Positions 24,787 to 43,148 are shown, counted from the first letter of the stretch. The stretch: DNA of 64,000 nucleotides from Planctomycetota bacterium (GCA_019636275.1 JAHBXY010000002.1:56213-120212); one strand, 5' to 3'. Translations and numbers: made by a program. The notes: generated from the sequence alone by a model not told the origin.

Positions 24787-24790
24787 ACGC

Positions 24791-25144: not shown

Positions 25145-25167
25145 GATCGACTCCTTGGGTTGATGGG

Positions 25168-28100: not shown

Positions 28101-28287
28101 CCGTGACCTGGATCGGCGTCGTGTCCGGGAATGCGTCGAGCGGAAGGCGCTGGAGCGCGTACACCCCGAGCATGGAGAGGAGCAGCGTGGCCACGAGGAC
28201 GATCGGGCGGTGCGCCAGGCACAGGTCGATCAGTCGTTCGAGAAAGCCGGGCGCCTCTGCCGGCGGCTCGGAAGAGGGGGGGGGCAT
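25168..28287 (-). CDS. czcA: heavy-metal efflux RND permease (CzcA/CusA family), 1039 aa
   Basis: ATG overlapping TAA of adaptor (TAATG); MPPPSSEPPAEAPGFLERLIDLCL...; HME-RND architecture. Confidence 0.85.
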   Translation of the reverse strand: MPPPSSEPPAEAPGFLERLIDLCLAHRPIVLVATLLLSMLGVYALQRLPLDAFPDTTPIQVTVNTVAPTLSPLEVERQITIPVEAALSGLPKLHEARSISKFGFSQITLIFEDELDIYLARQVVSERLGAVELPEGIDRPTLGPVSTGLGEVFHYLVTGEDKSLSELRTIHKYLVRPPLSAVPGVAEVNAWGGEERQVHVVVDPDRLLKHDLTVDDIVAGIRSNNLSVGGGMVSRGGEATLVQGLALASNVADVEQIVVATHDGVPVLVRDVARVEEGHEVRRGAVTADGKGEVVLGLAFMLMGENSRLVTVRLAERLAEVQKTLPEGVKLETVYTRTSLVDRVLDTVKKNLLEGALLVIAVLFAFLGNLRAGLIVALAIPLSMLFAFDGMLRFGIAGSLMSLGAIDFGLVVDSSVIMVENAARRLGEDTSGRSVREIVRDAAVEVRRPTLFGELIIMIVYLPILTLEGVEGKLFRPMALTVIFALLGSMLLSLTLMPVLASLVLRKRAHGEDEDNVLVRALKRGYRPILGGALRWPAVVLVLAVLVVAGAGWVATRLGSEFVPRLREGALVINTVRLASVSLEESVRYGMQIEQVVLQSFPDEVERVWTRTGTAEVATDPMGLELSDVFVTLTPTEQWTRATTQDELVKAMSEVVGKLPGMRAAFLQPIEMRVNEMIAGVRGDLGIKLFGDDIDVLKEKALEIQRVVEAVPGAAEVSAEQITGLPVLQVTVDRPALARYGIHAQEVLEAVEMVGTRPVGQVIDGARRFDLALRLEDRYRTDLEALGELLLTSPTGQRVPLHTLARLELIEGPSTIQHEWGKRRIVVQANARDRDIGGFVEDVRRALDAQVVLPAGYRIAFGGQFEHLERARERLLIVVPMALLLVLSLLYITYGRVLDALRVFTGVPFAIVGGVLALWLRDLPFSISAAVGFIALSGVSVLGDMVLVSAIRQLHDAGVPLQDAIRRAAETRLRPVLMTSLVAAFGFLPMALNTGVGAEVQRPLATVVIGGIFTSTILTLVVLPVLYSVLRGREPAAPS
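28276..28284. repeat. homopolymeric tract (9 G on + strand = 9 C in codons 2-4 of the RND gene)
   Basis: atg ccc ccc ccc tct, seen directly in sequence. Confidence 0.9.
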
Positions 28288-30053
28288 TACTCGCCCTCGC
28301 AACAGCCGGCGCCGATGCTGCCCTTGAGGATCTCGGTCTTGAGGAGGAACGCGCCGACCGAGACGACGGCCTCACCGTCCGAGAGGCCCGCGAGCACCTC
28401 GACGTGCGTGTCCGTCGCGCCGCCGAGTTGCACCTTCCGCGGCAGGAAGGCCGTGTCGCCCTCCGGGAGGAAGACGACGTTGCAGCAGCCCTCCCACTGC
28501 ACGGCCTCCCTCGGCACGAGCAGCGCGTCGCCTCGGTCGGAGAGGGTCACCTGCGCCGTGCCGAACAGGTTCGCGCGCAGACGGCCGTCGCCGTTCTTCA
28601 GCTCCGCGCGCGCCTTGAGCGTGCGCGTCCGTCGGTCGACCTCGCTCGAGATCCACGTGATGTGTCCCGAGAAGCTCTCCCCCCGCAGCGCATGAACCGC
28701 GAACACGACCGGCTGGTCGGGCGCGATCCGCGCGATCGCCGCCTCCGGCACGTCGAGCAGCGCCCACATGGTGTCGGTGTCGACGATCGTCAGCAGCGGC
28801 TGCCTGGTCTCCACGACCTGGCCGCGGACCGCGTCTCGCCTCACGACCACACCGGCGAAGGGGGCCCGGATCGCGAGCGTCGAGTCGCGCGCGTTTGCGC
28901 CACCTTCGCGGACCTTCGCCGCCTGGTCAGCGGTGAGCCCGATGCTTCGGAGGCGCTGCTCAGCCCTGGCCAGGTCCGCCTTCACCTCCGTCCTGCGAGT
29001 ATCCGCGTCGATCACGGCGCGCTGCGTGCCCAGCCCTCGCTCGACGAGGCCCAGCTCGCGGGCATGGTTCCGCTCCCACAGCTCGAGCATCGAGACCGCG
29101 GTCGTCAGCTCGGACTTCGCGGCGCCGAGCTCCGGCGACTCGATCGACGCGAGGACCGCGCCCTCTTCGACCCAGTCGCCGAGCTTCGCGTTGACCTCCA
29201 CGACCGTGCCCGGAACGCGCGAGGACACCTCCGCGCGACGGTCCGCGGCGTAGACGATCTCCACGTTCACGGTCGTCAGGTCGCGGAACGGCGCGCGCAC
29301 CACCGGCGTCGTCACGATCCCGGTCTGACGCACGACGTCCGCCGAGGCGAGCTGGATCTTCTGGGCGTGCTTCCGACAGCCGACGACCGGCGACGAATGC
29401 CGCCGCGCCTCCGGCGACATGGGCGCGCTCGCCGGCGGCGGCGCGGCGAGCCGCGGGTTGCAGATCACGCACTGGCTCTCGGGCACCTCGTGCTCGGCGC
29501 ACCAGTCGAACGTCTTCTTGAAGGCGGGGATCAGCGCCGCGTTGCAGCGGGTGCACAGCGCCTCGGGCACGCCGTGCTCGGTGCACATGCCCCGTTGCTC
29601 GACGAGGGCCGGCGAGCAGATGAAGCAGATCGCCTCCGCAACGCCGTGCTCTCCACAGAACGCGCCTTCGCCTTGACCATGACCCGACCCGCCCGGCGCG
29701 GGCGGCTTGTGTCGGCCCGCGACCTCCGGGTTGCAGGTGACGCACTGCGACTCCGGCAGGTTGTGCTCCGCGCACCAGTCGTTGATCGCCTTGAACGCAG
29801 GGATGACGTCCTTGTGGCAGCGGGTGCAGATCGCCTCGGGGACGCCGTGTCCGCCGCAGAAGCCCTTCGTCTCGAGGAGCGCGGGCGTGCAGAACGGACA
29901 CTCCGCCGTCGACAGCGTGTGCGGACACGTGCCCGTCGCCGCCGCCGCGGGCCCCACGCCTCGACTGCGCATGACGTGGAAGCGATAGCCTGCGCCGACC
30001 AGGAGCAGGACGAGGATCCCGGCGAGCGCCAGGTTCTTCTTCGTGGTGTTCAT
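28287..30053 (-). CDS. RND membrane-fusion adaptor with an N-terminal array of four C-x-(E/G)H-x-(V/L)PE-x-x-C-x-x-C modules and C-terminal Cys pairs (EGCCN, GAGCCEGE)
   Basis: GGGAGGA RBS; TM anchor LALAGILVLLLVGAGY; CGGHGVPEAICTRCH, CAEHNLPESQCVTCNP, CGEHGVAEAICFICSP, CTEHGVPEALCTRCN, CAEHEVPESQCVICNP; HlyD-like core. Confidence 0.8.
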   Translation of the reverse strand: MNTTKKNLALAGILVLLLVGAGYRFHVMRSRGVGPAAAATGTCPHTLSTAECPFCTPALLETKGFCGGHGVPEAICTRCHKDVIPAFKAINDWCAEHNLPESQCVTCNPEVAGRHKPPAPGGSGHGQGEGAFCGEHGVAEAICFICSPALVEQRGMCTEHGVPEALCTRCNAALIPAFKKTFDWCAEHEVPESQCVICNPRLAAPPPASAPMSPEARRHSSPVVGCRKHAQKIQLASADVVRQTGIVTTPVVRAPFRDLTTVNVEIVYAADRRAEVSSRVPGTVVEVNAKLGDWVEEGAVLASIESPELGAAKSELTTAVSMLELWERNHARELGLVERGLGTQRAVIDADTRRTEVKADLARAEQRLRSIGLTADQAAKVREGGANARDSTLAIRAPFAGVVVRRDAVRGQVVETRQPLLTIVDTDTMWALLDVPEAAIARIAPDQPVVFAVHALRGESFSGHITWISSEVDRRTRTLKARAELKNGDGRLRANLFGTAQVTLSDRGDALLVPREAVQWEGCCNVVFLPEGDTAFLPRKVQLGGATDTHVEVLAGLSDGEAVVSVGAFLLKTEILKGSIGAGCCEGE

Positions 30054-30221
30054 GCGAGTCCTCCCGCTCCGCGAAGTCGCGGAGTCGGTGCCGGGTGCGT
30101 GGTGTTCTTGAAGCGTGAACGCGGACCACGCGCCGCCGTGAGACGACGGCGACGCGCTGGTCGCGTGGACGTGCAGGGGCACCGTGGGCGGAGTCTCTCC
30201 GCGAACGGCGACTACACGGAG

Positions 30222-30620
30222 CTACGCTCGGGGCGGGTGAAAGACCTCGAGCGGCTGCACATGGCGAGCGCCGGCGCGGTCGAGCGTCGACGACCGAGCA
30301 CCGGGCAGATCAGCCACGACAGACGGACCAGCGTCCGTGCCGAGGGGTAGCCCACCGCAGCAGCCGCAGTGACATCCCGAATCGCAGCCGTCCTTCGGGA
30401 CCGGTGCGCCGGCGTCGTTCTCGACCGCGAGGCCGTCGTCGCAGCCGTCGCTGCCGTCCGCGGGGATGCTCGGGCAGCACGCCGAACCGTGGGAATGAGC
30501 GGCCTCCGACCGGAACGCGTCGAGCGGGATGTGCAGCACCAGCACGCCCACGATCAGGGCGAAGCAGATCAGCGAGGTGAACCCGGCCGGGCGATGCACA
30601 GGCTGCGACCGTACCAGCAT
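30222..30620 (-). CDS. small membrane-anchored Cys-rich protein (HSHGSACCP...CDDG...DGCDSGCHCGCCGG)
   Basis: N-terminal TM helix; 12 Cys in 132 aa; upstream of the third RND operon on the same strand. Confidence 0.45.
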   Translation of the reverse strand: MLVRSQPVHRPAGFTSLICFALIVGVLVLHIPLDAFRSEAAHSHGSACCPSIPADGSDGCDDGLAVENDAGAPVPKDGCDSGCHCGCCGGLPLGTDAGPSVVADLPGARSSTLDRAGARHVQPLEVFHPPRA

Positions 30621-30650
30621 GTCGTTGAGCCATCAAGCTTCAGTAAGCTC

Positions 30651-30908
30651 ATGCCGAGGATCTGCATGATCGAGCCCGCCACGACCTACCTTCTCCTCCT
30701 TCTCGTGCAGGCGCTGCACCTGCTGCATCACCGCCTTGCGAAGCGGCACATCAGCTTCGCCGAGGTCACCTCGGCCGCCGTCCTCTGCGTCCCGTTGACG
30801 GCGCCGGCGCCCGCCTGGCTGTTCTGCTCCGTGCACCTGGCCCTCGTCGCCGTGCAGGTGATCGGGAGCGTGTGGATCCGTCGGCTTTCGCCGGACTGGG
30901 GTAAGTGA
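30651..30908 (+). CDS. small hydrophobic membrane protein, unknown function
   Basis: High GC3; two hydrophobic helices; stop overlaps GTG of the next ORF (GTGA). Confidence 0.35.
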   Translation: MPRICMIEPATTYLLLLLVQALHLLHHRLAKRHISFAEVTSAAVLCVPLTAPAPAWLFCSVHLALVAVQVIGSVWIRRLSPDWGK

Positions 30909-31123
30909 GCCGTGTGGCCGCGACCGTCGAGGTCGTCACGACGTACGCGCTCAGCGTGCGCACCGGCGCCTGGACGGGCAACTCGGTCACCGGCCAGACG
31001 AACACGGGCCAGATGCATGTGCGCGTGCAGCAGAGCCGCGACTGGGTCCTCGCGCAGTTCGACAACCGTACCGGCTGGATTCAGATTCACGGCGACTACA
31101 CGCACACCGTCTCGCCGGGGTGA
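30905..31123 (+). CDS. small SH3b-like (bacterial SH3) domain protein
   Basis: YALSVRTGAWTGNSVTGQTNTGQMHVRVQQSRDWVLAQFDNRTGWIQIHGDY fits the SH3_3 pattern (LxVRxG...G..V.V....W..V....G.GWI); high GC3. Confidence 0.35.
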   Translation: MSRVAATVEVVTTYALSVRTGAWTGNSVTGQTNTGQMHVRVQQSRDWVLAQFDNRTGWIQIHGDYTHTVSPG

Positions 31124-31585
31124 TCGGCTGACGGCCGCAAGGGCGAGGCATGCCCGCCGCATGATGCGGGCGAGATGGATCGGATTCGCGTGGTGTGGAA
31201 CTCCTAAGTCCAGTGGCCGCACACCATCCTCCAGGAGTCGGATGGGCCGGGTAGTCTAGCCGCAGGGCGGCTTTCATCGCTTTAAATGTTTCTGCTCGCG
31301 ATCCTGCAGTTTTGACGACTTAACCCGTGCTGCGCCAGCTGTCCGGTTTGATGTGGCAGGGCTGTTCTGCCAAATTGACAACGTGGCGCTGGGTCAGGGT
31401 TCATCCTGCGTCGGTTGCGCGTGGCCCGCCCTGTGCAGGTGAGGTGCGGCCAGGCGTTCGACTCCGGTCTGCCCCAAACCCACACCGAACCATCGGCGGT
31501 GCGGTCCCGGGCGGCGACTTTGAAGGTTGTTCCTCCGGGAGGGCCAACGTCGCGGTCAGTCGTGCTCGGGCGGTGGAGGGAGCTC

Positions 31586-32788
31586 ATGAGTACACGCCCC
31601 ACGAAGGAGGGACCACGCCCGACCAGGCGAACGCGCCCTGGCCCCGCTGACGCGATGAGCAGGCACATTCCTCCCGCAGTTCGGTGCTCTCTCTGGGGAC
31701 GGGCTTCAGGTCGTTGCGAGTTCTCGGGCTGCAACCGTGCCGTGTCGTGGCACGCGGTGACGATGGAGGCGGGCAACTTCGCGGAAGTCGCGCACATCGT
31801 CGGGTTCAGCAAGGACGGACCCCGCGGTGAGGCCTTCCTCTCCGCGGACCTCGCCAAGGACGTTTCGAATCTCATGCTCCTCTGCCGTGGGTGTCACGAC
31901 CTCGTCGACAAGGACCCCACGAACTATACGGTGCATGTGCTCCAGGACATGAAGCTGGCCCATGAGCAGCGCGTGGAGCTGGTCACGGGCATCGCCGAGG
32001 AGAAGAAGAGCCACGTCCTGCTCTACTCCGCCAACGTCGGCGACCACGGTCCGGCGTCTACGTTCCAGCGGGCTGCGACCGCCATGTCCCCCGACTCGTA
32101 TCCGGCAGAGACGTATGCGATCTCACTTGGGTTCTCGAACAGCGCCATTCGCGACACCGACGACGACTTCTGGGCGATCGAGCAGAGGAACCTGACCGCG
32201 TCCCTGAAGGAGCGGCTGCGACCTCGGCTGGCTCGAGGCGGCGACATCTCCCACCTCGCCATCTTCGCGGTCGCGCCTCAGCCGCTGCTCATGCAGCTCG
32301 GATTCTCGCTGTCCGACATTCCTTCGGCCGAGACCTTTCAGCTGCATCGTGAGCCTCCAGGTTGGAAGTGGCGCTCTCACCCGCCGCGGTCACGGTTCGT
32401 TGTTGTGGAGCCGACCGAGATACGCGGGGCCCCAGCCCTCGTGCTCTCGTTGAGCGCGTCCATCTCGCCCGAGCGCGTCAAGGCTGTCCTGGGCGAGGAC
32501 GTGACGATCTGGACCCTCACGGTCGACGAGCCGCACAACGATTTCCTGCAATCGCGACAGCAGTTGAAAGAGTTCCGCGAGACGGTCCGGCCGCTCCTTG
32601 ACCTGATCAAGCTCAAGCACGGCGAGAGCTCGTTGCTGCACGTCTTCCCTGCCATGCCCGTCTCGACTGCGGTCGACTTCGGTCGTGTGCTCATGGCCAA
32701 GGCCGACCTGCCGATCAGGGTCTACGACCAGAACCGGTCCAAGGGCGGCTTCGTCCATGCTTTGGATCTCGTGTCGAGTCCTTTGTAG
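31586..32788 (+). CDS. cap5: CBASS effector, Cap5-like: N-terminal HNH endonuclease + C-terminal SAVED domain
   Basis: HNH motif CSLWGRASGRCEFSGCN...AEVAHIVGF...LMLLCRGCHDLVDKDP; SAVED-like halves HLAIFAVAPQPLLMQLGFSL / LLHVFPAMPVSTAVDFGRVL; GGAGGG RBS before ATG 31586 (alternative ATG 31655). Confidence 0.65.
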   Translation: MSTRPTKEGPRPTRRTRPGPADAMSRHIPPAVRCSLWGRASGRCEFSGCNRAVSWHAVTMEAGNFAEVAHIVGFSKDGPRGEAFLSADLAKDVSNLMLLCRGCHDLVDKDPTNYTVHVLQDMKLAHEQRVELVTGIAEEKKSHVLLYSANVGDHGPASTFQRAATAMSPDSYPAETYAISLGFSNSAIRDTDDDFWAIEQRNLTASLKERLRPRLARGGDISHLAIFAVAPQPLLMQLGFSLSDIPSAETFQLHREPPGWKWRSHPPRSRFVVVEPTEIRGAPALVLSLSASISPERVKAVLGEDVTIWTLTVDEPHNDFLQSRQQLKEFRETVRPLLDLIKLKHGESSLLHVFPAMPVSTAVDFGRVLMAKADLPIRVYDQNRSKGGFVHALDLVSSPL

Positions 32789-32803
32789 GACGAGAGGGCC
32801 AAC

Positions 32804-33536
32804 ATGGCAGAGCACCTTTCACCGGAGCGCATGGAGCAGTTCAGCCGCATCCTCGGGGATCTGGCCGACGACCTCGATGTTCCACCGTCGAAGTATGAGG
32901 AAGCGAAGGAGCACTACGACGCGGTAGGGGCGTGGCTGAACGACAGCCCCGACCTGGCCGCCCTGAACCCGACCATCTACCCACAGGGGTCCTTCGCTCT
33001 TGGCACCGCGATCAAGCCGGTTGGCGATGGCGACTATGACGTCGATGCCGTCTGCGTACTCCAGCTCAGCACCGCGACCACGACCCAGCACGCAGTGAAA
33101 ACTCTCGTCGGTGATCGCCTGAAGGAGAACAAGACGTATGCCCGCATGCTGCACCCCAAGGCGGGTGGGCGTCGTTGTTGGACCCTCAAGTACGCTGACT
33201 CGTCCAACTTTCATCTCGACATCTTGCCGGCCGTTCCCGATAGCCAAAGGGAGCTTGTCCGGCTCGGCGTCCCGCCCGAGATCGCGAAGTACGCAATCTG
33301 CATCACCGATCGCGAGCTCTGGGCCGTCGCGTTGACCTGGCCGCGGAGCAACCCGCAGGGCTACGTCGAGTGGTTCAAGTCGCGGATGCGCGTTGTCTTT
33401 GAAGAGCGTCGCCAGCTACGCGCGCTTGAGATTCGCGCCTCGGTCCAGGACATTCAGGACTATCAGGTCCGAACGCCCCTTCAACGTCTCATTCAGCTCC
33501 TGAAGCCCACGTTCCAGAGATCTCGGCCGTGCTCCG
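32804..33536 (+). pseudogene. nucleotidyltransferase (SMODS/CD-NTase-like; GS...DxD motif), N-terminal fragment interrupted by an IS1634-family insertion
   Basis: YPQGSFALGTAIKPVGDGDYDVDAVCVL; reading frame runs into the IS inverted repeat at ~33537. Confidence 0.55.
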
Positions 33537-35688
33537 CCCAATTATGTGTCTGCCAGAGTGGGGCTGAGTCGTCCTGCGCGTCCTCGGCGACGGGCTACTT
33601 CGCCTTCTTGGCCCTCCAGCCGCGGTGGCGTGGCTTCGGCTCCGCGAGTTGGGCATAGGCGACGCCAGGATCCGTCAGCATCGAGTGGTTGAGCAGCTCG
33701 AGCGCGTCACGCTGTGCGGTCGTCATGTTCGTCACGGTCACGCCGGGCACCCCGTCGACGCGGATCGTGTTGATCCCCTCGAAGAGACGGAAGACGACCT
33801 CCGTGGTCGGTCGCGTGGTCCAGCCCTTGTTCCCCGGGAAGTCGGCCCCGTGCTGCTCGAGGAGGCGGCGCACCTCCCGCTGGATGAGCGCGTAGACCAT
33901 CAGGGCCAGCACGTAAACGAGACCGAGCGCCGCGATCCGGGCGTCGGTCTTCAGGAACAGCGGCGCCACCTGTTGTGGATTCTTGAAGATCCGGATCGCG
34001 GTCTCGACCAGGTTCTGGTCCTGGTACGTGCGGAAGAGCTCCTGGTCCGAGCAAGCGTCGGGCCCCGTCGACGGGCGGGTCGTGATCAGGACGAAGCAAC
34101 TCTCGCGAAGGATAGCCTCGTCGACGTCGTGCTGGTCGTGTTCGATCGTGAGCACGGCGCGCCATACCGTTTCCATTTCGCGCTGCTCGTCTGCTGGCGG
34201 TCGTCCCGGGCCGGGGCGCTTCGTCGGTCGACGCTCGGCCACCACGCCAGCGACAAGCCGGTGAAGGTCTGGGCCGTGCCGCTCGATCGCGGCCGCAGCC
34301 GCGCGCCGGGCGTCCTCGTCGCACTTGAACTCGCGCTTGCCGAGCCGGACTGCGATCCGTTCGAGGCTCTTGCGCTCCTTGTCTCGTCGCGCCTCGATGA
34401 TCGCCGTCTTCTGCTCGCGCAAGGTCGTGGACTCAACGACGAGAGCGCGGATCGGGAACTCGTGCTCGACGCCGGTCGACTCGTCCTTCCAGCGATAGGA
34501 GAGGGCACACGAGCGGCCGTTCCACTCCTTCTCCGGCTCCGCCTCGAGGTCGTCGACGGCAGTCCCGTCCTCCAGGAACACCTTCGGGTAGACGACCTTC
34601 AGGCGAGTGAGCGGCTCGTCGCGCCCGAGAGCCGCGCGGAAGGCAGTGAACGCCTCCCCCCAGAGCCCGACACCGCGCGGCATCATCGTCAGGACATGGA
34701 AGCCGTGCTTCTGCGCGAGCAGCAGCGTCTCGCCCGAGAAGAGCTTGGCGTCGCCGACGATCGTCGTGCCCCGTGGGTCGGGGAGGACCTCGGCGAGGCG
34801 CCCCATGAGCCAACGGGTCTCCTGCGGGTCACTGCGGTTGCCGGACGACACGCGACCGAGAACGGCGACGCCGCCGTCGCAGGCCACGGCCAGTCCGTAC
34901 ACGATCTGCTTCAGGTCGCTCCGATAGTCCTTGCTGTGGCCTCTCGTGACGTGTGGAACCGCTCGCTCGTCCTCCGGGTCCAACGGCGGCACGCTGGCCG
35001 CATACTCGCCGTAGACCGAGACGGACGAGGTGTCGACGTGAATGGTCCCGAGCTCGAGGTCGTGCACTTTCACCGCACGAACGACGGCTGCAGCTTGGAT
35101 CTTCGTCGGGCCCGCGGCGAACGTGTCGTCGAGCGCCCGGGCCAACCGGTCGTCGTGGAACTGGGCGCAGCTCCCCTTCCAGCCGAACGCCAGCTCGAGG
35201 TCGTACGGCGCGAGGAGCTCGTCGATCCGATAGAGAGTGTGCCGGCCCAGCAGGATCGCGACGATCAGGGCCTCGACGCACTCACCCGCGCTCACACGAC
35301 TGCGCGGGTCCATGGGAACGATCTCGTCCACGAGGGCTGCGACGTCGAGCTGCCGCAGAGCACGTCCAATGATCGGCAAGAAGTCGAGGCGCTTCGCGCT
35401 GGCTTGCATGTGCCCTCTCCTCGCACGCCCGCGTGCGCGGGGCAAGGACAGCACGACAGCGGCCAGCACATCTCCAGCGTCCACGCCTCGCGCGGTCCAG
35501 TTGCGCATCCTTGCGCATCAGAAGCGTCTCCGGAGTGCAGCCGAACGGCGCCACGGAGTGGCCTCCAACACGGAGCTCCAACAGAATGCGCGCGGCGCGC
35601 CAGATGCACGCCAGTCGCCGCGGCTCGCCCCCCTGGGCGGCGGGGCGCCGTCGTCGGCTCTCAGTTGTTTGGCAATTACATAATTGGC
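33537..35688 (-). mobile_element. IS1634-family (IS4 superfamily) insertion sequence, ~2.15 kb, imperfect ~30-bp terminal inverted repeats (ccaattatgt...tgcca...ctgag)
   Basis: IRL 33537-33568 and IRR 35657-35688 are reverse-complementary; large DDE transposase inside. Confidence 0.65.
33595..35409 (-). CDS. IS1634-family DDE transposase (604 aa)
   Basis: Length and motifs typical of IS1634 (HVDTSSVSVYG, DGGVAVLGRV, PRGVGLWGEAFTAF); the antisense 782-aa ORF is rejected. Confidence 0.7.
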   Translation of the reverse strand: MQASAKRLDFLPIIGRALRQLDVAALVDEIVPMDPRSRVSAGECVEALIVAILLGRHTLYRIDELLAPYDLELAFGWKGSCAQFHDDRLARALDDTFAAGPTKIQAAAVVRAVKVHDLELGTIHVDTSSVSVYGEYAASVPPLDPEDERAVPHVTRGHSKDYRSDLKQIVYGLAVACDGGVAVLGRVSSGNRSDPQETRWLMGRLAEVLPDPRGTTIVGDAKLFSGETLLLAQKHGFHVLTMMPRGVGLWGEAFTAFRAALGRDEPLTRLKVVYPKVFLEDGTAVDDLEAEPEKEWNGRSCALSYRWKDESTGVEHEFPIRALVVESTTLREQKTAIIEARRDKERKSLERIAVRLGKREFKCDEDARRAAAAAIERHGPDLHRLVAGVVAERRPTKRPGPGRPPADEQREMETVWRAVLTIEHDQHDVDEAILRESCFVLITTRPSTGPDACSDQELFRTYQDQNLVETAIRIFKNPQQVAPLFLKTDARIAALGLVYVLALMVYALIQREVRRLLEQHGADFPGNKGWTTRPTTEVVFRLFEGINTIRVDGVPGVTVTNMTTAQRDALELLNHSMLTDPGVAYAQLAEPKPRHRGWRAKKAK

Positions 35689-36541
35689 GAAGCCTGGGCC
35701 GAGATGTCTGGAATGCGGGCTGAAGCGCCACCGCGATCTCCGTTACGACGACGACGACGACAAGCCAATCTCGATCATCATCACGACGCTGGCAGCCAAG
35801 GCCTATCGGAACGAGCGGGACCTGGGCTCCGCACTCCTGAACGTCGTTCCCGGAATGCGTCACGGGATCGAGCTGCGCGAAGGCAAGTGGTGGGTCCCCA
35901 ACCCCGTCGACCCGCGCGAAAACTTCGCCGACAAGTGGAACGAGACGCCTCGCAAATACGAGCTGTTCCGTGACTGGCTCCAGGCCGTCGAGACGGAGCA
36001 TCGAGCCCTCCTGAATTCGCTCGGGCCGAAATCGGGGCAAACCGTCGCAAGGCTGTTGTGTGAGTCGTACGGTGCCGACACCTCGAAGGGAGCCATCGAA
36101 AAGTTCGCCCGTCGGAATGACGCCGACACCTTCGTACTTACGGGGCCAAGGAACGCTCAGCGCTTCAGCATCGCGTATCGAGAGAATCCCCTCTGGCCTA
36201 TCTACCTGAAGCACCGCGTGACCATCTCGGGGCGCGCAACCAGGAACGGCTTCACGCCGTTCGCGTTCGAGAACGGTTCCACCGCGATTACAAAGCACTG
36301 TTCGCTTAGCTTCGCCGCGCACACCGACGTTCCCCGACCGTTCCAGGTGTTCTGGCAGGTTGTGAACACGGGCGCCGAGGCGGAGCGAGCCAAGTGCCTC
36401 CGCGGTGACCGCTTCTACCAGAGCGGTCCCACACACGATGAGATCACGCTCTATCGAGGCATGCACTGGGTGGAGTGCTTCGTCGTGAAGGACGGCATGT
36501 GCATCGCGCGGAGCGCCGAGTTCGTCGTCAACGTGCAATGA
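35689..36541 (+). pseudogene. C-terminal fragment of the IS-split nucleotidyltransferase (helical region PISIIITTLAAKAY + C-terminal beta-rich domain, possibly AGS-C-like)
   Basis: No plausible own start (TTG only); continues in-frame sense from the N-terminal fragment if the IS is removed. Confidence 0.45.
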
Positions 36542-36622
36542 CTGAGCCGGTGGCTCGGGCGCCCTAGCGAACAGGATCTCGCCGCAGGTCTCAATCGGAT
36601 CAATTAAAGAAGTGACTGCTGC

Positions 36623-37627
36623 ATGGCCACGACCGTCGACACAGCTTTTGAGGAGTTTCTTCGGACGAAGGTCAATCTCGACCCCGATGACACCGGAGGT
36701 GCCCGTAGGAGCCGCGATTGGCTCCTCGAACTGATCGCAAAGTTCCCGGACACATACGGCGACTTCCCTCTCCTCTACTCCGAACGAGACATTGCCTACG
36801 GCTCGTTCGCCCGTCGAACGAAAATCCGCGAACTCGACGACGTTGACCTGATTTCCTGCCTACACGCCACCGGGGGAACATACGTCGACCAAGGCTTCGG
36901 CGGGCCGATTCAGATCACCGTCCCAGCTTCCAGTCGACTCAGTGATTTTTGCCACGACAACAGCGCTAGCCTCAACTCCATCAAAGTGGTGAATCGTTTT
37001 GTGAAGGCATTGGCAGCCGTGCCGCAGTACAGCTCGGCAGCGATCAACAGGCGCGGCGAAGCGGCCGTCCTCGAACTCACGTCCTATCCATGGAGCTTCG
37101 ACGTCGTCCCAGGATTCTTCACTGCGCCAGACGCGCACGACCGAACCTACTACTTGATTCCAGACGGTAGCGGACACTGGAAGCGGACGGATCCGAGAAG
37201 GGACCGGGACCGGATCGCCAAGGTGAACCAAGACCATGACGGTCACGTTCTGAGCATCGTCCGTCTTATGAAGTACTGGAACCGACGCCCTACGATGCCT
37301 TCGGCACCTTCGTACATGTTCGAGTGCATGATCACGGACTACTACGAGGGGAGAGTTACGAAGGCAGTAAAGTGGGTCGACATCGAGACCGGCCAGGTAT
37401 TGCGGTACATTGCTGAGGCGGTCCTTGGTGTGGTGAACGACCCCAAGGGACTTCAGGGTGACCTGAACTCGCTGACTTTTGAGCAGCGCTGGGCAATCCG
37501 CGAGCGCGCCTTGCTCGATGCTGGACGGGCTGATGAGGCCCGCGCCCACGAGACGAGGAAGGATCATGAAAGGTCGATCAATAAGTGGCGCGAGGTCTTT
37601 GGACCGGAGTTCCCCCCATTTGAATGA
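36623..37627 (+). CDS. cdnX: cGAS/DncV-like nucleotidyltransferase (CD-NTase)
   Basis: YGSFARRTKIRELDDVDLISCL (GS...DhD active site), IVRLMKYWNRR helix typical of CD-NTases. Confidence 0.65.
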   Translation: MATTVDTAFEEFLRTKVNLDPDDTGGARRSRDWLLELIAKFPDTYGDFPLLYSERDIAYGSFARRTKIRELDDVDLISCLHATGGTYVDQGFGGPIQITVPASSRLSDFCHDNSASLNSIKVVNRFVKALAAVPQYSSAAINRRGEAAVLELTSYPWSFDVVPGFFTAPDAHDRTYYLIPDGSGHWKRTDPRRDRDRIAKVNQDHDGHVLSIVRLMKYWNRRPTMPSAPSYMFECMITDYYEGRVTKAVKWVDIETGQVLRYIAEAVLGVVNDPKGLQGDLNSLTFEQRWAIRERALLDAGRADEARAHETRKDHERSINKWREVFGPEFPPFE

Positions 37628-37734
37628 GGACAACGGGGACACGGACCCATACGGTTTGCGCCCGACCTGACGCATGCGGTGTGGCGACGCAAGTGTCGCC
37701 GTGTTGTTATTTGGCAACGAACGTGAGGAATTGA

Positions 37735-38604
37735 GTGAATTCACTTGAGCGCGTTCACGCGTGCTTTCGAGGTGCGGCCGAGATCGCGAAGACAACCACA
37801 AAGACCGGGTTCGTCCTCGAAGTGACAGCCGCCGGATTTGCCATCTGGGGGCTATTTTCAGACGTGCCGCGAATGTGGTTGCCGATCACCGGCTTAGGGC
37901 TCGCATTCGCTGCGTCGTGTGTAAGAGCGCTCGGGAGCCACTGGCGCGCCTTTTCACGCGCATGCGTTAGGACGTCAGCCCGCGCATTCGCCCTAGGAGA
38001 AGACATAGATCCCGCGACACTCTCCAGCATCGAGAGCGATGCCCCGCCGCTCGCGGCACCCTTGGCGAAGTGGCTACCGGCTCAGACCTTGCAAGGGTAC
38101 TACCAGCCACGGTTTCCCGCGGGAGAGGCGCGCTTGCGAGAAATCTATGCAGAATCAGCCTTCTTCACGTGGCGTCTGCTTCGCGTTTTCTTCTGGGCGC
38201 TCCTCCTGCTGACTCTCATCATTGCGGCGGGCGCTTTCGTTGCCCTTTACGGGCTGGTCGTCCAGTCTCCGACTGACGAGAACGTCAAGCGCGCCATCCT
38301 CGAAACATTGTGCTCCGTTACTGTCGCGATCTTTGGGATGAAGGCGGCGGAGCAGACAATTGAGGTCTTCGGCCAGGCTTCGTCCGTTCGTTCAGTAGCG
38401 GATGCCTTGATCCGAGCTCCCCTCCCTTGCGGCAAGGTTCTGGGCGAACTGGTCGACGATTACGACATCCAAATGTCTGCAGGGAAAGATCCTCCGACGC
38501 TGCTCTGGGTCCTGATGCGATCGAGCTTGAACGAACAGTGGAATCGTAGGCGTGAGGCCCTTGGACCTGTTCCCCCGACGGCGACATCGAGCGCGGAACA
38601 GTGA
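37735..38604 (+). CDS. multi-pass transmembrane protein, putative CBASS membrane effector
   Basis: Hydrophobic helices (FVLEVTAAGFAIWGLF; LPITGLGLAFAA; FFWALLLLTLIIAAGAFVALYGLVV; ILETLCSVTVAIFGM) immediately downstream of the CD-NTase. Confidence 0.45.
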   Translation: MNSLERVHACFRGAAEIAKTTTKTGFVLEVTAAGFAIWGLFSDVPRMWLPITGLGLAFAASCVRALGSHWRAFSRACVRTSARAFALGEDIDPATLSSIESDAPPLAAPLAKWLPAQTLQGYYQPRFPAGEARLREIYAESAFFTWRLLRVFFWALLLLTLIIAAGAFVALYGLVVQSPTDENVKRAILETLCSVTVAIFGMKAAEQTIEVFGQASSVRSVADALIRAPLPCGKVLGELVDDYDIQMSAGKDPPTLLWVLMRSSLNEQWNRRREALGPVPPTATSSAEQ

Positions 38605-38702
38605 AACCGGCTGAGCAGCGTCGCGTTTGTCGGGCTGCATACGAGAGTATGTAGGCGAATGTCCGGGCCTCCGCCGTGATGCCTCAGGCTTGAACGGCGT
38701 AG

Positions 38703-39665
38703 GTGCCCAATGTGGGCGAAGGACGCTACGCTGATCTCGTGGAAGAGTCGGACACGCGGTCACGAGAGGACGCTCGCCGTGAGACAACCTGGGCTGGGTG
38801 GTGTGAGGACGTTATTGCCCGCGCGTCACTGGCACCCGGGCATGCCGAACGGGCCCGCTGTCTGCTCCCGCTACTTGTGCCTGACGAAGCTACGGCGGAC
38901 ACGCTCTCGCGGGCCTACGCATCACGCACGACGCAGTCAGCCCGTGCTGCCCTCCGAGCGTCTGTTCGAGCACTCGCCGTGAGTGTGCCTGGTGTGGCGG
39001 ATGGAAGCGTGCTGGTCGCGAGCGAGCTGTTGGAGCTTGAGTCGAGGGAACAGGACGAGACGCTCTCCGGAATCGGTCAGCACGGAGTCGACGGAGACGC
39101 AGTTATCTGGAGCGACGAAGGTCCGACCCTTCGCGAGGGCGACGGAGTGTTGGAGACACGCGCCCTCCTCTCGGCCCTTCTCGAACTGTCGGCGGTCCGC
39201 CCGGCAGTCCAAGAGCTCGGCTTCACCGTGCTCGACGGCGCCACCACGCCGACCTTCCAGCAGGATCTCCGTCGTGCGTGGGCGATCGTCAACGGCGACC
39301 CGGTGCCGTCGACCGCGAGCAACGGCGAGCCGCCGACGCCGGACGCGTTGACGTCAGTGGCCAATGAGCTTCGAGCGCTTCGCGCGGAGGTGGCCCGACG
39401 GGCCACCCCGTACGAGGGGACTGTCGACTGGATCGAGGACGTGGTTGCCGCGCTGCCGCCGCTGCTGGAGCAAGGCGAAGCCGCCAAGGCCCTCGGGGTG
39501 GATCCGCGCACCATCAGGCGCATGATCAACCGGGGCGAGTTGAAGTCCGTTGACGTAGGAGAAGGCGGCCGGGGACGATCTTGCGGCGTACGGATTCCTC
39601 GCGTCGCGATCGCCGACTTCTTGCGCGAGAAGGAAGCGCGCGGCCAGCGACCTTCTTCGCCGTGA
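38703..39665 (+). CDS. hypothetical protein with C-terminal excisionase/AlpA-like HTH
   Basis: EAAKALGVDPRTIRRMINRGELKSVDVG...RIPRVAIADFL; adjacent to integrase. Confidence 0.45.
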   Translation: MPNVGEGRYADLVEESDTRSREDARRETTWAGWCEDVIARASLAPGHAERARCLLPLLVPDEATADTLSRAYASRTTQSARAALRASVRALAVSVPGVADGSVLVASELLELESREQDETLSGIGQHGVDGDAVIWSDEGPTLREGDGVLETRALLSALLELSAVRPAVQELGFTVLDGATTPTFQQDLRRAWAIVNGDPVPSTASNGEPPTPDALTSVANELRALRAEVARRATPYEGTVDWIEDVVAALPPLLEQGEAAKALGVDPRTIRRMINRGELKSVDVGEGGRGRSCGVRIPRVAIADFLREKEARGQRPSSP

Positions 39666-39668
39666 CCG

Positions 39669-41075
39669 CTACGTGGTCGCGGAGTCGATGGAGACGACGG
39701 CGACGCTGCTCGAAGACCCCCGGCGCTTGAGGCGAGCCACGATCGCAGCCACGTCGGCGGTGATGCCCATCGCAGCCTCGAGCGTCTTCGCGGACTTGCT
39801 GATGCCCTTGAGCAGCCCGACATAGTGACGCTCGGCGATCACGATCGAATGGCCGAGGCGCTTGGCGGAGTGGAAAGCGGCGGCGGCCGCGTAGATGCCC
39901 GGCGCGTTGGTCAGGAACGTGCCGCACGTGGCCCGCAGCGCGGGCGTCTCGTCCTCGGTCTGCGACCAGCAGAAGTCCGGCGCACCGAGCTCGTCGACGA
40001 GGCGCTTGCGCGCCGACTCGACCTTGGAACGAGACCAGGGCTCCTTGCCACCGAAGACGTACACGTCGTCCTTTCCGCGCTCGAGGGCCTCCAGGATCTT
40101 CTTGAGGCCCGGGCAGATGCTGAGGTCGATCGCGCGCTCGTGACCCGTCTTGACGTCGCCGGCGCGCAGGACGATCTCCCCTGCCTTCCTGCCCCGGCCG
40201 TCGCGGGCGTCGAAGTCGACGGAGGCCCAGCGGAGCATGAGCGCCTCGTCGCGGCGGCAGCCGGTCAGGAGCATGAAGACGATGAACGGTGCGATCGGGT
40301 CGTACTTCGGGGTGCCGCCCTTCGCACCCGCTGCCTTCTCGGTGCGAGTCATGACGAACGTGCCGGTGTCGTGGCTGAGCGCGGCCTGGAGCAGCGTCTT
40401 GATCTGCGCGACGCGGAGGAAAGCAGGCCGAGGCTTCGCGGTCTTGAGGGGCTTGATGCGGTCCTTGATGTCGTCGGACGTGATGTGAGGCAGGCGGCCG
40501 ACTCGGCGGAGCTGGTTAAGGATCGCCTTGACGGAGCGCAGGCGGTTGTTGACCCCACCGGGGGAGCAGGTGCGATCGCTCGGCGCGCGCTCGGTGCGGC
40601 GTCCGCCCTTGACGGGCCTCTTGGCGGGCCTCGCCGCCAGCCACTCGACGAACGCGGCCAGGTGGTGCGGCCGGAGATCGTCGGCGAGACGGATCCGGTT
40701 GATGTTCGCCCACTCGAGGAAGATCGTCGTGGCGGTGCGGTAGGTCTTTGGGGTGGACCCCTTGAGCCGCGCGCCCTTGGTGCTGAAGTAGCCCTCGATC
40801 GCGTCCGCGAGAGACGCGCCGGTGTGTGTCGCCGCCCCCGTGGCGAGCTTGCGCTCGCGTTCGCCCAGCGCGAGGGACTTCGTGATCATCCACTTCCGGC
40901 GCCCCTCCGCGGTCGTGATCCCCTCTGGCTCGAAGGAGAACTCCCGCGGCTTCCCGGTGTCCGGGTCGAACCAGCGCGCGCGGAGGTCGAGGCCGGCTGC
41001 GCTCCGTCGCTTGACCTCGAACACGCCCGGATGGGCCGACCTGGCCCTCCGGCGCTGCACCTTCTTCACGATCAC
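39669..41075 (-). CDS. int: tyrosine-type site-specific recombinase / phage integrase
   Basis: C-terminal catalytic region LLTGCRRDEALMLRW ... HSAKRLGHS ... ERHYVG; N-terminal SAM-like domain. Confidence 0.8.
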   Translation of the reverse strand: MIVKKVQRRRARSAHPGVFEVKRRSAAGLDLRARWFDPDTGKPREFSFEPEGITTAEGRRKWMITKSLALGERERKLATGAATHTGASLADAIEGYFSTKGARLKGSTPKTYRTATTIFLEWANINRIRLADDLRPHHLAAFVEWLAARPAKRPVKGGRRTERAPSDRTCSPGGVNNRLRSVKAILNQLRRVGRLPHITSDDIKDRIKPLKTAKPRPAFLRVAQIKTLLQAALSHDTGTFVMTRTEKAAGAKGGTPKYDPIAPFIVFMLLTGCRRDEALMLRWASVDFDARDGRGRKAGEIVLRAGDVKTGHERAIDLSICPGLKKILEALERGKDDVYVFGGKEPWSRSKVESARKRLVDELGAPDFCWSQTEDETPALRATCGTFLTNAPGIYAAAAAFHSAKRLGHSIVIAERHYVGLLKGISKSAKTLEAAMGITADVAAIVARLKRRGSSSSVAVVSIDSATT

Positions 41076-41085
41076 CTCCGATCGG

Positions 41086-41146
41086 CTCAGTCAACAAGCC
41101 AGTCAACAATAGCGCGTCCGTCGGGGTCCGTGCGAGTCCGTCGGAG
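41086..41146. promoter_or_regulatory. direct repeats (2 x agtcaacaa; 2 x (c/a)gtccgtcgg(g/a)g) between integrase start and tRNA fragment, candidate arm-type recombinase-binding sites
   Basis: Seen in sequence; related GTCAA(C/T)A motifs recur at 41325 and 41337 on the other side of the tRNA fragment. Confidence 0.3.
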
Positions 41147-41199
41147 TTCCGTAAATGCCTGTGCGGCAACGTATCTACTGACGGCCCAGGAGGCCTGGC

Positions 41200-41246
41200 C
41201 GTGACTGAAAATCACGGAGTCGGCGGTTCAAGTCCGCCCTCGTCCA
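41200..41246 (+). other. 3' fragment of a tRNA-Phe(GAA) gene (anticodon arm, variable loop, T-arm, acceptor 3' strand + discriminator A); 5' half absent. Putative att site of the integrase
   Basis: cgtga-CTGAAAA-tcacg (anticodon GAA), gagtc, ggcgg-TTCAAGT-ccgcc, ctcgtcc-a; upstream sequence cannot form acceptor or D stems. Confidence 0.55.
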
Positions 41247-41260
41247 TGCGGTAAGAGAAG

Positions 41261-41287
41261 AAGGCCCCGGCGGTCGCGCCGGGGCCT
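41261..41287 (+). terminator. perfect 12-bp GC-rich hairpin (aaggccccggcg-gtc-cgccggggcctt) followed by cttctgcgtt, likely the original tRNA terminator
   Basis: Seen in sequence 15 nt after the tRNA fragment. Confidence 0.5.
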
Positions 41288-41708
41288 TCTGCGTTCCGGC
41301 GGAGCCGCGGTCGTTCAGTCAATACGCCGGTCAACATTCGCGCGGGCCATGGCCGCGCCCGATGACAACGGGCCGCCTCTCGTGGTCAGGAGCCGCACTC
41401 CTGATCCAAGGGGCTCGCGTGCGCGTGCCCCCTCCTGAGCTCACAGGGTGGAGCTTCTTCGGCGCGGTCGCGGACTGGGCTGCAGCACGAGGCACCGAAC
41501 CGGTGCCAGGAGAGCTGCATGTCCCTTCTGCTTCTCGACCTCGACGCCCGCGTCCGCGTCGCCATGATCGCGGAGCTCGATCGCGACCTCGCCGGCGACG
41601 GCCCCTTCATCTCGCCGCGGCTCACGCCGCCGGGGGTCGCGCTCGTGGAGCTCGTGAGCGTGGCGGCCCGCCAGGCCGCGACGGTCGGCCGGAACGAGGT
41701 CTGCCCTC

Positions 41709-42437
41709 GTGGTGCGCCCGGCGCGAACGGGAAGCGGAAGAAGTTCAAGAACTGCTGCCTGGTCCCGCTCGATCGCGTGGGGCCGCCGGCAGGGAGCGGC
41801 GGTGGACGACGAACTGATCGACGACCTGGTCGAGCGCGACGCGGCCGTGTCGGTGTGGCGCTTCCACGAGGAGCCGCGCGCGCTGTGGTCGGTGATCCGC
41901 GACTTCCTGGGCGGCGGCGGTCACGCGCCGAACGCGGCGCACGTGGCGCTGGCGCGCCTGCCGCTCGCGGGCGTCGTCACGCAGAACGTCGACGGCCTGC
42001 ACCAGGCGACCGGGACGCGCGCGCCGATCGTCGAGCTGCACGGGTCGCTCCTGGCGACCCGCTGCGACGCGTGCGGCGCGCGCGGGCCGGCGTGCGCGGC
42101 GCTGCTCGACGGGCCGCTGCCGCCCCCGTGCGCCTGCGGCGCCGCCCTGCGGCCCGACGTCGTGCTCTTCGGCGAGTGGGTCGCGCCCGACCGGCTCGCG
42201 CGGGCGCGGGCGCTCGTCGAGCGCTGCGACCTCTTGCTCGTCGTCGGCACGGCGGCCGACGTGTCGCCCGCGGCCGACCTCGTCCGGCTCGCCGCGGCGC
42301 GCGGGGCGCCGGTCGCCGAGGTCAAGCGGCGGCCGTCGTGCCTGCACGAGGCGGCAGGTACGCGGCACCTCCCGGGGGCGGCGGAGGACGTGCTGCCGGC
42401 GGTCGTCGAGCGCCTGCGCGCGCGGGGGACGGCGTGA
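41709..42437 (+). CDS. Sir2-family (CobB-like) protein lacking the N-terminal Rossmann GAGIS motif (truncated/frameshifted)
   Basis: PNAAHVALARL...VVTQNVDGLHQ...ELHGS...CDACG...CACG zinc ribbon; in-frame stop at 41655 prevents N-terminal extension; upstream frame (41519-) has coding GC3 and a SEC-C-like motif KRKKFKNCC. Confidence 0.55.
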   Translation: MVRPARTGSGRSSRTAAWSRSIAWGRRQGAAVDDELIDDLVERDAAVSVWRFHEEPRALWSVIRDFLGGGGHAPNAAHVALARLPLAGVVTQNVDGLHQATGTRAPIVELHGSLLATRCDACGARGPACAALLDGPLPPPCACGAALRPDVVLFGEWVAPDRLARARALVERCDLLLVVGTAADVSPAADLVRLAAARGAPVAEVKRRPSCLHEAAGTRHLPGAAEDVLPAVVERLRARGTA

Positions 42438-43069: not shown

Positions 43070-43118
43070 CCCGCGCGAGGTGCCGCGGCTGCACGGCCCG
43101 ACGGGCGCGCCATGTGAA
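43011..43118. repeat. direct repeat copy 1 (~105 bp, ~85% identical to 44751-44860); includes the 3' end of gene 42434..43069
   Basis: Aligned by eye: gcgcgcggcgaYgaggccctgcgcgccgaggcRgcggcgcggctggcggcgctggac...tgacc...ggctgcacggcccgac. Confidence 0.7.
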
Positions 43119-43148
43119 GTCGGCTCGTGATGTAGCGGCCCGCGTCAC

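Follow-up and report, generated by a model that had tools for sequence, protein, structure and literature searches.

An IS1634-family insertion sequence splits the cyclase gene of a type I CBASS operon in a Planctomycetota bacterium

In a Planctomycetota metagenome-assembled genome (MAG) we found a two-gene type I CBASS operon, cap5 then cdnG, whose cyclase gene is split by an IS1634-family insertion sequence (IS), so that cdnG is here a disrupted member of its family, a pseudogene. The split gene lies at 32804-36541 of a 64-kb window, by which we mean the whole stretch of DNA that was analysed (GCA_019636275.1, JAHBXY010000002.1:56213-120212). We consider it very probable that the insertion is recent and of an ordinary loss-of-function kind, and that the Cap5 effector thereby lacks its activating signal. 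The features of the locus are listed in Table 1.

Table 1. Features of the split cyclase gene and its surroundings, in window coordinates.
Feature	Position	Strand	Details
cap5, HNH-SAVED effector nuclease, 377 aa, intact	31655-32788	+	likely start ATG 31655
cdnG 5' part, codons 1-234	32804-33505	+	PDLC00770 profile 5-236, E=8e-80
Target-site duplication, left copy	33500-33505		CTGAAG, 6 bp
IS1634-family insertion sequence	33506-35719 (2214 bp)	-	terminal inverted repeats, related copies
Left terminal inverted repeat	about 33506-33555		outer block 33506-33528, inner block 33538-33555
Transposase, 604 aa, intact	33595-35409	-	likely start ATG 35409, GGAGAGG ahead
Right terminal inverted repeat	about 35670-35719		inner block 35670-35687, outer block 35697-35719
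Target-site duplication, right copy	35720-35725		CTGAAG, 6 bp
cdnG 3' part, codons 235-505	35726-36541	+	PDLC00770 profile 235-509, E=4.2e-84
Second CD-NTase, 334 aa, intact; part of another type I CBASS operon	36623-37627	+	PDLC00802, Pfam SMODS
Putative 4TM effector, second CBASS	37735-38604	+	PADLOC PDLC00724, E=3.4e-7, weak match

Results

Two open reading frames are halves of one cyclase gene

The coding sequence of cdnG is interrupted between codons 234 and 235. Because the two fragments match ranges 5-236 and 235-509 of one and the same profile, the PADLOC CBASS cyclase PDLC00770, the halves are contiguous. We repaired the gene in silico by taking out 33507-35726 (2220 bp, the IS plus one copy of the target-site duplication), which gives the empty site CTCATTCAGCTCCTGAAGCGCCACCGCGATCTCCGT and a 505-aa open reading frame (ORF) without a stop codon. 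Taking out the 2214-bp IS alone also keeps the frame, with two extra codons left behind. The repaired protein matches PDLC00770 from end to end (5-509 of 509, E=1.9e-169) and has about 4,500 homologues, the best of which are 500-517 aa long with 98-100% coverage; identity to the best intact homologue is 61%. Across the junction, LLK/RHRD, it aligns to intact homologues free of gaps, with residues L233, K234, R235, H236, R237 and D238 all invariant, and the cut falls in a conserved helix (TPLQRLIQLLK/RHRD) between the catalytic N-lobe and the helical C-lobe. In 13 homologues 116 alignment columns do not vary; cdnG keeps 112 of these, evenly over both halves.

A sequence-only reading of the window had taken the two ORFs to be the halves of one CBASS cyclase, to be doubted if the fused ORF could not be aligned as one protein; run with the corrected excision, the alignment gives one protein, and its central proposal holds. 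The excision that it suggested, of exactly 33537-35688, produces instead a frameshift and a stop at residue 256, since 2152 bp are removed (2152 mod 3 = 1). That frameshift results from wrong boundaries and is not evidence against a split gene: the outer limits of the gene, 32804 and 36541, stand, whereas the limits given for the IS are about 31 bp off on each side and take in the inner repeat block only. Similarly, the pair of sequences put forward as a candidate target-site duplication, cagagatctcgg and ccgagatgtctgg, are not a direct repeat but inverted copies that make up the outer arms of the terminal repeats. Nor does the N-terminal ORF stop at the edge of the IS: only its homology ends there, while the ORF itself continues for another 50 codons within the IS and ends with a stop at 33658. 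The annotated 3' ORF starts at a TTG at 35684, inside the IS; this codon comes straight after a TAA, within the IS repeat, and has no Shine-Dalgarno sequence.

An insertion sequence of the IS1634 family

The terminal inverted repeats of the IS are about 50 bp long, imperfect and bipartite, with pairing arms at 33504-33555 and 35670-35721, and the CTGAAG duplication is perfect and abuts their ends exactly. Its transposase gene, which is antisense to the CBASS operon, is open as far as 35508. The protein matches NF033559 (IS1634 family, equivalog) with 214.2 bits against a cut-off of 100, over profile positions 5-481 of 483, in agreement with the family named by the sequence-only reading, and its N-terminal domain is Pfam DUF4277. 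Homologues of the transposase are 604-630 aa long, including a protein cluster (P0121) of 604 aa that is 99% identical; public assemblies contain no record of the exact protein, whether in its 637-aa or in its 604-aa form.

Copies in differing genomic contexts are evidence that this IS is mobile. There is a full copy, 98.5% identical, in a metagenome contig (L012; WBZO01051104), and a 90%-identical IS is present in four copies at different sites in the Planctomycetota MAG ACE_NR_PLAN1. All four of the latter have 6-bp duplications (CGTAAG, CCCGAG, CTGAAG and TCCAAG), which possibly point to a target preference, NNNRAG, in a group of IS1634-family elements of Planctomycetota. The family mostly assembles as IS-sized contigs, which marks the IS as a repeat; the 64-kb window itself contains no further copies. 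ARAGORN found no tRNA beside a related IS copy (contig L007) where one had been suspected.

Elements of the IS1634 family (an ISfinder family) have target-site duplications of 5-6 bp and are typically 1.5-2 kb in length. The IS described here resembles that family in having a single DDE transposase with DUF4277, terminal inverted repeats, 6-bp duplications and multiple copies in related genomes. It differs in being, at 2214 bp, somewhat longer than the typical size, and in the length (about 50 bp) and bipartite form of its inverted repeats.

A clade-G cyclase beside an intact Cap5

By sequence and fold, the cyclase is a clade-G CD-NTase with a C-terminal AGS-C domain. Its catalytic residues, G62-S63, D79-V-D81 and D139, fit the pattern GS...[D/E]x[D/E]...D and stand in invariant alignment columns. 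The N part is recognised by the Pfam profiles DncV-like_NTFase (35.1 bits, cut-off 24.9) and SMODS (33.7 bits, cut-off 26.5). The 3' part of the gene codes for the helical C-lobe, a linker and an Ig-like AGS-C domain (residues ~386-505; Pfam AGS_C, PF18134, 108.2 bits, cut-off 26.7, residues 386-505). In an AF2 model of the repaired cyclase (pLDDT 85.6) the AGS-C segment is beta-rich, and the best fold matches of the model, which span both halves, are the CdnG structures 8hsb and 7ljn (TM(target) 0.72-0.75). Sequence matches among solved structures include 9woo (E=2.5e-62) and SmCdnG (E=4.9e-34). At residues 217-220 the motif IQDY matches LPEY of EcCdnG, although the proline of this motif, invariant in 13 homologues, is a glutamine here (P218Q). 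With the activation loop placed by this motif match, the break after K234 would lie about 9-10 residues past the loop.

Cap5 is intact, as the sequence-only reading had held, with both HNH and SAVED domains at full length. It matches the PADLOC Endonuclease effector profile PDLC00739 (476.8 bits, 5-375 of 378) and AsCap5 (PDB 7RWK; E=3.5e-88, residues 10-371 of 377), and the His/Asn/His positions of its HNH domain (AHIV, NLxLLC and HxLxD) are aligned with those of AsCap5. In Pfam it scores 156 bits for SAVED and 20.7 bits for HNH_2, just below the cut-off of 21. Its ORF is open from a TTG at 31415.

Cyclase and effector alone make up the operon, as in type I CBASS; in profile searches of the neighbouring ORFs we found no Cap2, Cap3 (E1/E2/JAB), HORMA or TRIP13. 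The same two-gene unit accompanies the intact cyclase homologues P0022 and P0024, each of which directly follows an HNH-SAVED gene (382-404 aa) whose product is 51-57% identical to the Cap5 of the window. No sigma-70-like promoter was found by a scan that is blind to other promoter types and uninformative for a planctomycete. The operon sits within a lower-GC island of the MAG. All repeats that join 30.0-31.7 kb to 40.9-41.8 kb, as att sites of the island might, are 12 nt or shorter, which is chance level, and there is no tRNA in the 64-kb window and no Rfam match across 29-43 kb.

The second CBASS operon, which was absent from the sequence-only reading, is immediately downstream of cdnG. Its CD-NTase matches PDLC00802 with 436 bits (profile 1-330 of 332), and the nearest solved chains are 6p82/6p8u ('Nucleotidyltransferase') and 9sa4 (CD-NTase), at E about 1e-13. 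With this intact system next to cdnG, the cell still has a CBASS. Cap5 may be cross-activated by what the adjacent cyclase makes.

Recurrence of the insertion allele

We found the same insertion allele in five other assemblies, with 100% identity over the gene and both junctions (SRR12908349, SRR17973843/46/47 and GCA_026184275.1; these datasets may not be independent populations), so that all six assemblies of the locus found carry it. The left junction is spanned by the independent contigs L001-L005 and the right one by L006, again at 100% identity, and the short-read contigs of the locus all end inside the IS. A 36-mer of the empty site had no matches in public genome contigs and none in metagenome contigs, and there was no near-identical full-length cyclase among 5.8 billion protein clusters. 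The insertion appears to be fixed in the sampled populations.

Comparison with known CBASS systems

The operon shares its HNH-SAVED effector architecture, its clade-G cyclase and the adjacent, co-oriented placing of effector and cyclase with the CdnG-Cap5 systems of Asticcacaulis sp. and Lactococcus lactis (PMC8568899; 7RWK, 7RWM, 7RWS). The latter operons are type II (short) and have a third gene (Fatma et al. 2021, PMC8568899), whereas here there is no third gene, the cyclase carries AGS-C, and it is IS-interrupted. About 40% of type I operons, branches of clade G among them, are reported to carry CD-NTase-AGS-C fusions (bioRxiv 10.1101/2023.05.21.541620), and our operon resembles these in consisting of a cyclase and an effector, with an Ig-like AGS-C domain of about 18 kDa fused to the cyclase. 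Unlike the operons of this kind that have been tested, which are gammaproteobacterial, it contains a pseudogene and its host is a Planctomycetota MAG. EcCdnG, which has a protease-sensing activation loop (Hobbs & Kranzusch 2026, bioRxiv 10.64898/2026.03.04.709575), belongs to the same clade, and both proteins have a charged segment that ends in an I/L-P-D/E-Y-like motif, followed by the conserved TPLQ helix. In contrast to the cleavage of EcCdnG, the genetic break would fall about 10 residues beyond the loop, inside the conserved helix, and foreign residues are added. A search of the literature showed no directly comparable IS-disrupted CBASS, and nothing turned up there for the sample accessions.

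Discussion

In the scenario that we favour, an IS1634-family element would have transposed into cdnG at codon 234/235, duplicating the hexamer CTGAAG. Since the cut is in the helix that joins the N-lobe and the C-lobe, only two products would be possible: an N-lobe of 234 aa followed by 50 aa that the IS encodes and, if it is made at all, a TTG-initiated fragment with no Shine-Dalgarno sequence that comprises the C-lobe and AGS-C. Judging from the position of the break, the cyclic-nucleotide signal would no longer be made, and the insertion almost certainly knocks out the cyclase. By homology to AsCdnG and EcCdnG (PMC8568899), the lost signal is most likely 3',2'-cGAMP, which is the product of AsCdnG and activates Cap5 (PMC8568899). 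Because Cap5 needs its ligand to assemble as an active nuclease, we expect it to stay inert. The cdnG-cap5 unit would then be a null allele, beside an intact CBASS composed of the neighbouring cyclase and 4TM effector. The insertion looks recent, since both halves of the gene and the duplication are undecayed. The allele fits a simple loss of function, which drift may have fixed or which selection may have favoured if the system was costly.

One point counts against a null allele: a break in the chain does not by itself preclude activity, since proteolysis within the central loop is the normal way in which clade-G CD-NTases become active (bioRxiv 10.64898/2026.03.04.709575). The split enzyme might still be active if its fragments reassembled and mimicked a protease-cleaved CdnG, which would leave the system functional or constitutively primed. 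Clade-G enzymes are turned on when a central loop some 30 aa long is cut (in EcCdnG K184-K218, with LPEY at 210-213), and the native N fragment here, at 26.5 kDa, is close in size to the reported tagged product of about 28 kDa. However, the break is placed outside the loop, in the invariant helix after it; the N fragment ends in 50 residues of foreign sequence; for the C fragment there is a TTG start only, with no Shine-Dalgarno sequence and no sigma-70-like promoter by scan; and a constitutive cyclase beside an intact Cap5 should kill, which does not fit the persistence of the allele in several samples. We consider an active split enzyme highly improbable. The sequence-only reading took the insertion as a possible means of domesticating the system or shutting it down. 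We also find it unlikely that the insertion is an adaptive silencing or a reversible switch, selected because CdnG-Cap5 is costly or autoimmune and perhaps undone by precise excision between the 6-bp duplications. The intact effector and the little-decayed cyclase halves (112 of 116 invariant columns) could be seen as kept in reserve, the insertion allele is the sole one in six assemblies while the empty site was not found, and excision with one duplication copy (2220 bp) or of the IS alone (2214 bp) restores the frame; but each of these observations is equally expected from a knockout that is recent and either neutral or slightly advantageous, and we saw no relative in which this insertion had occurred a second time, which would have hinted at recurrence. 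Precise excision of DDE-type elements is rare and is not known to be programmed, which also counts against a switch, and our data give no indication of one. The broader idea of a system held in reserve or re-wired, whether by a reversible IS 'safety catch' or by a split cyclase that reassembles under some conditions, has in our estimate only a slender chance of being right.

Two further explanations would remove the split gene altogether. A MAG assembler could have misplaced a repeated IS into an intact gene, and the IS is indeed a repeat in which the short-read contigs all break. Against this, the 6-bp duplication is perfect and lies at the exact ends of the IS, independent contigs cross both junctions at 100% identity, and neither public collection contains the 36-mer of the empty site; an assembly artefact is already largely refuted, and we assign it hardly any probability. 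An IS that happens to lie between two unrelated genes would agree with the separate public annotations of the halves, 'nucleotidyltransferase' and 'hypothetical protein', but not with contiguous profile ranges, with an in-frame fusion that rebuilds an invariant motif, or with thousands of single-chain homologues. The repaired ORF, its profile coverage and the gap-free junction refute this explanation, to which we give virtually no credence.

The loss of cdnG function that we propose is ordinary gene loss without a new mechanism, and it leaves knowledge of how CBASS or IS elements function unchanged. Its consequences are for annotation and for surveys. The public 'nucleotidyltransferase' and 'hypothetical protein' should be corrected to one IS-disrupted CBASS cyclase with IS-encoded tails and, as they are halves of one disrupted gene, it would be wrong to score the locus as a working CBASS. 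For a group of IS1634-family elements of Planctomycetota, a 6-bp target-site duplication is now documented. The locus offers surveys of defence-system turnover a clean natural case in which the sensor and synthase would have been lost, while the nuclease effector is intact and a second, intact CBASS adjoins it.

One cyclase gene in two pieces

The open reading frames on either side of the transposase gene are the halves of a single CD-NTase gene, cdnG. When the insertion sequence (IS) and one copy of its target-site duplication are taken out (2220 bp, 3 x 740), a stop-free ORF of 505 aa results, which matches the PADLOC cyclase profile PDLC00770 over positions 5–509 of 509 (E = 1.9e-169) and contains the Pfam domains SMODS, DncV-like NTase and AGS_C; the actual fragments match profile positions 5–236 and 235–509. 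A sequence-only reading had taken the two ORFs for one cyclase rather than unrelated genes, and this alignment as a single protein bears it out. Among 5.8 billion protein clusters, approximately 4,500 homologs of the repaired protein were found; the best of these are 500–517 aa long, have 55–61% identity and span 98–100% of it. The only entries with 100% identity were the two fragments, from a Planctomycetes MAG, named 'nucleotidyltransferase' and 'hypothetical protein KF878_01240'. These halves are deposited as two proteins (P0010 and P0084) with IS-encoded ends: the last 50 residues of the former and the first 12 of the latter.

The junction, TPLQRLIQLLK/RHRD, aligns without a gap to 13 intact homologs, in which L233, K234, R235, H236, R237 and D238 are invariant. 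With AlphaFold2, the repaired protein was modelled at a mean pLDDT of 85.6, and the model has the CdnG enzymes 8hsb and 7ljn as its top structural matches, aligning over both halves. In sequence, the protein is nearest to the solved chains 9woo (E = 2.5e-62) and SmCdnG (E = 4.9e-34).

Features at and near the split cdnG locus
Feature	Position	Strand	Basis or remark
P-type ATPase	22588–24786	−	metal-efflux-type cluster
RND pump	25168–28302	−	ACR_tran, 945 bits
CusB/HlyD-type adaptor	28287–30182	−	long Cys-rich N-terminal extension, repeated C..C..C motifs
cap5, HNH-SAVED ORF, 457 aa	31415–32788	+	ORF listing, direct reading
cdnG 5' fragment ORF, 284 aa	32804–33658	+	ORF listing, direct reading
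Target-site duplication CTGAAG	33500–33505 and 35720–35725		directly outside each IS end
IS1634-family IS, 2214 bp	33506–35719	transposase on −	inverted repeats and 6-bp duplication
Terminal inverted repeat, outer block	33506–33528 / 35697–35719		repeat finding, pairwise alignment of ends
Terminal inverted repeat, inner block	33538–33555 / 35670–35687		repeat finding, pairwise alignment of ends
Transposase ORF, 637 aa	33595–35508	−	ORF listing; between the two cyclase-fragment ORFs
cdnG 3' fragment ORF, 285 aa	35684–36541	+	ORF listing, direct reading

Structure and relatives of the insertion sequence

The assignment of the intervening element to the IS1634 family was correct: its transposase scores 214 bits against the NCBIfam equivalog for this family (cut-off 100), over nearly the whole profile, and has DUF4277 as its N-terminal domain. 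Translation likely starts at an ATG at 35409, preceded by GGAGAGG, giving 604 aa; homologs are 604–630 aa long, matching this form, and public cluster P0121 is 99% identical. The terminal inverted repeats are about 50 bp long, bipartite and imperfect. The limits first proposed for the element, 33537–35688, cover the inner repeat block only, and their excision removes 2152 bp, causing a frameshift and a stop at residue 256. The two candidate duplications proposed with them correspond to the outer arms of the repeats, an inverted pair and not a direct one.

We scanned public collections for further copies using a degenerate pattern of the outer repeat. In the Planctomycetota MAG ACE_NR_PLAN1, a 90%-identical IS occurs four times, each time at another site (L007, L009, L010 and L011) and flanked by a 6-bp direct repeat (CGTAAG, CCCGAG, CTGAAG and TCCAAG), which fixes the limits of the window's IS and its 6-bp duplication and shows that the element is mobile. 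All five duplications of the group, including the window's, end in RAG, which suggests a preference for NNNRAG targets; the hexamer CTGAAG was hit twice, in unrelated contexts. A full copy, 98.5% identical, is on the 2444-bp metagenome contig WBZO01051104.1. It lacks a matching duplication (CTTGAG on the left, CATCGG on the right), and could have arisen as a chimeric assembly of repeats or by two copies recombining. One copy has been binned with a myxobacterial MAG of the Sandaracinaceae, ACE_MYX11. Its contig (JAHBWG010000193.1, 2218 bp) is essentially one copy of the 90%-related ACE_NR_PLAN1 element, has the same BLAST statistics as the four copies there, and comes from a MAG sharing the 'ACE' isolate prefix; likely, either a repeat contig was placed in the wrong bin or the element was transferred between phyla.

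The insertion is real and recent

Independent contigs cross the left junction (from SRR12908349 and SRR17973843/46/47 as assembled in Logan, and from GCA_026184275.1), reaching 215–517 bp into the IS, and a further one spans the right junction. Within the gene portions, identity is 100% for all of them. One has six mismatches in all, inside the IS near the contig's broken end, as expected if the sample holds several slightly different IS copies. These contigs and the target-site duplication rule out an assembly artefact. A 36-mer representing the empty site had no match in either public contig collection (genome or metagenome contigs).

Both halves are free of stops and frameshifts and the duplication is perfect, so the insertion is evolutionarily recent. 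Repaired cdnG keeps 112 of the 116 columns invariant in the 13 homologs (59 of them N-terminal to the split, 53 C-terminal), the departures being L98V, P218Q, N296D and V494I.

The CBASS unit and its neighborhood

The upstream effector Cap5 is intact, as had been claimed, matching the PADLOC profile for endonuclease effectors over its full length (476.8 bits). Its SAVED domain scores 156 bits, and residues 10–371 match Asticcacaulis AsCap5 (PDB 7RWK; E = 3.5e-88). Profile and structure matches begin at residue 81–82 of the 457-aa ORF, so translation probably starts at an ATG at 31655, giving 377 aa. Two intact cyclase homologs (P0022 and P0024) directly follow a SAVED gene of 382–404 aa, 51–57% identical to the window's Cap5, so cap5 followed by cdnG-AGS-C is a conserved two-gene unit. 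We found no Cap2, Cap3, HORMA or TRIP13 genes near the locus, which makes this a type I CBASS. AGS-C fusions are reported in about 40% of type I operons, clade G branches included (bioRxiv 10.1101/2023.05.21.541620).

A second type I CBASS, apparently intact, lies in tandem 82 bp downstream of split cdnG (36623–38604), with a 334-aa CD-NTase, which carries a GSFA...DDVD motif and matches PDLC00802 at full length with 436 bits, and a putative 4TM effector, whose profile match is weak (E = 3.4e-7). The pair is within a stretch of lower GC content (~30600–41400; 58–69% vs 71% for the whole window), whose end part carries an HTH_17/MerR-like gene (38703–39665) and a minus-strand tyrosine-recombinase-like gene (39669–41075; Phage_integrase 26.3 bits, just below the cut-off of 27.1). 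These features suggest that a mobile defence island has integrated here; searches for a tRNA, att repeats and Rfam matches found none. Just upstream is a minus-strand metal-efflux-type cluster (22588–30182). GC content rises to as much as 81% just downstream, in sharp contrast to the island (77–81% at 41700–44700), and the sole domain match of the ORF at 41519–43069 is biotin/lipoyl-attachment (residues 346–415).

Expected effect of the insertion

The N-lobe, which holds the catalytic GS, DxD and D139, is cut off by the break from the helical C-lobe and AGS-C domain; the break falls mid-way in a helix (H225–240) predicted by AlphaFold2. The N fragment runs on for 50 residues encoded by the IS, and the sole start of the C fragment is a TTG right after a stop codon, within the IS repeat and without a Shine-Dalgarno sequence. 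Cap5 is activated by 3',2'-cGAMP, the product of AsCdnG (PMC8568899), and by analogy the window's pair would use the same chemistry. The split enzyme would make no cyclic nucleotide, Cap5 would stay unliganded as an inactive nuclease, and the unit would be a null allele.

A broken chain is not automatically inactive, because clade-G and clade-A CD-NTases are turned on by a phage prohead protease, which cuts a central loop of about 30 residues (K184–K218 in EcCdnG, with an LPEY motif at 210–213; bioRxiv 10.64898/2026.03.04.709575), and by motif matching (IPDY in homologs, IQDY at 217–220 here) the equivalent loop ends only about 9–10 residues ahead of the IS break. A constitutively active split cyclase is nevertheless extremely improbable, since the break is inside an invariant helix, foreign sequence has been added, and such an enzyme next to intact Cap5 should be lethal. 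The glutamine at codon 218 (33455–33457) replaces an I-P-D-Y proline invariant in the 13 homologs that probably corresponds to P211 in the protease-recognition motif of EcCdnG; a shift in phage specificity or the onset of relaxed constraint could lie behind this change.

Loss of function being our preferred reading, the insertion might also be adaptive, a domestication or switch of the unit. It is the sole allele seen and both halves are undecayed, but an ordinary knockout fits the computed data equally well, and IS1634-type elements are not known to be reversible in a programmed way. We consider adaptive silencing or a switch improbable.

The defence unit and the element are each of a known family (type I CBASS CdnG-AGS-C/Cap5; IS1634), and breakage of a defence gene by an IS is a familiar kind of event. 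Mechanistically, split cdnG is not new. The deposited half-proteins are a minor annotation artefact from which spurious protein families could arise; the split gene is real, and its worth is as an annotation correction.
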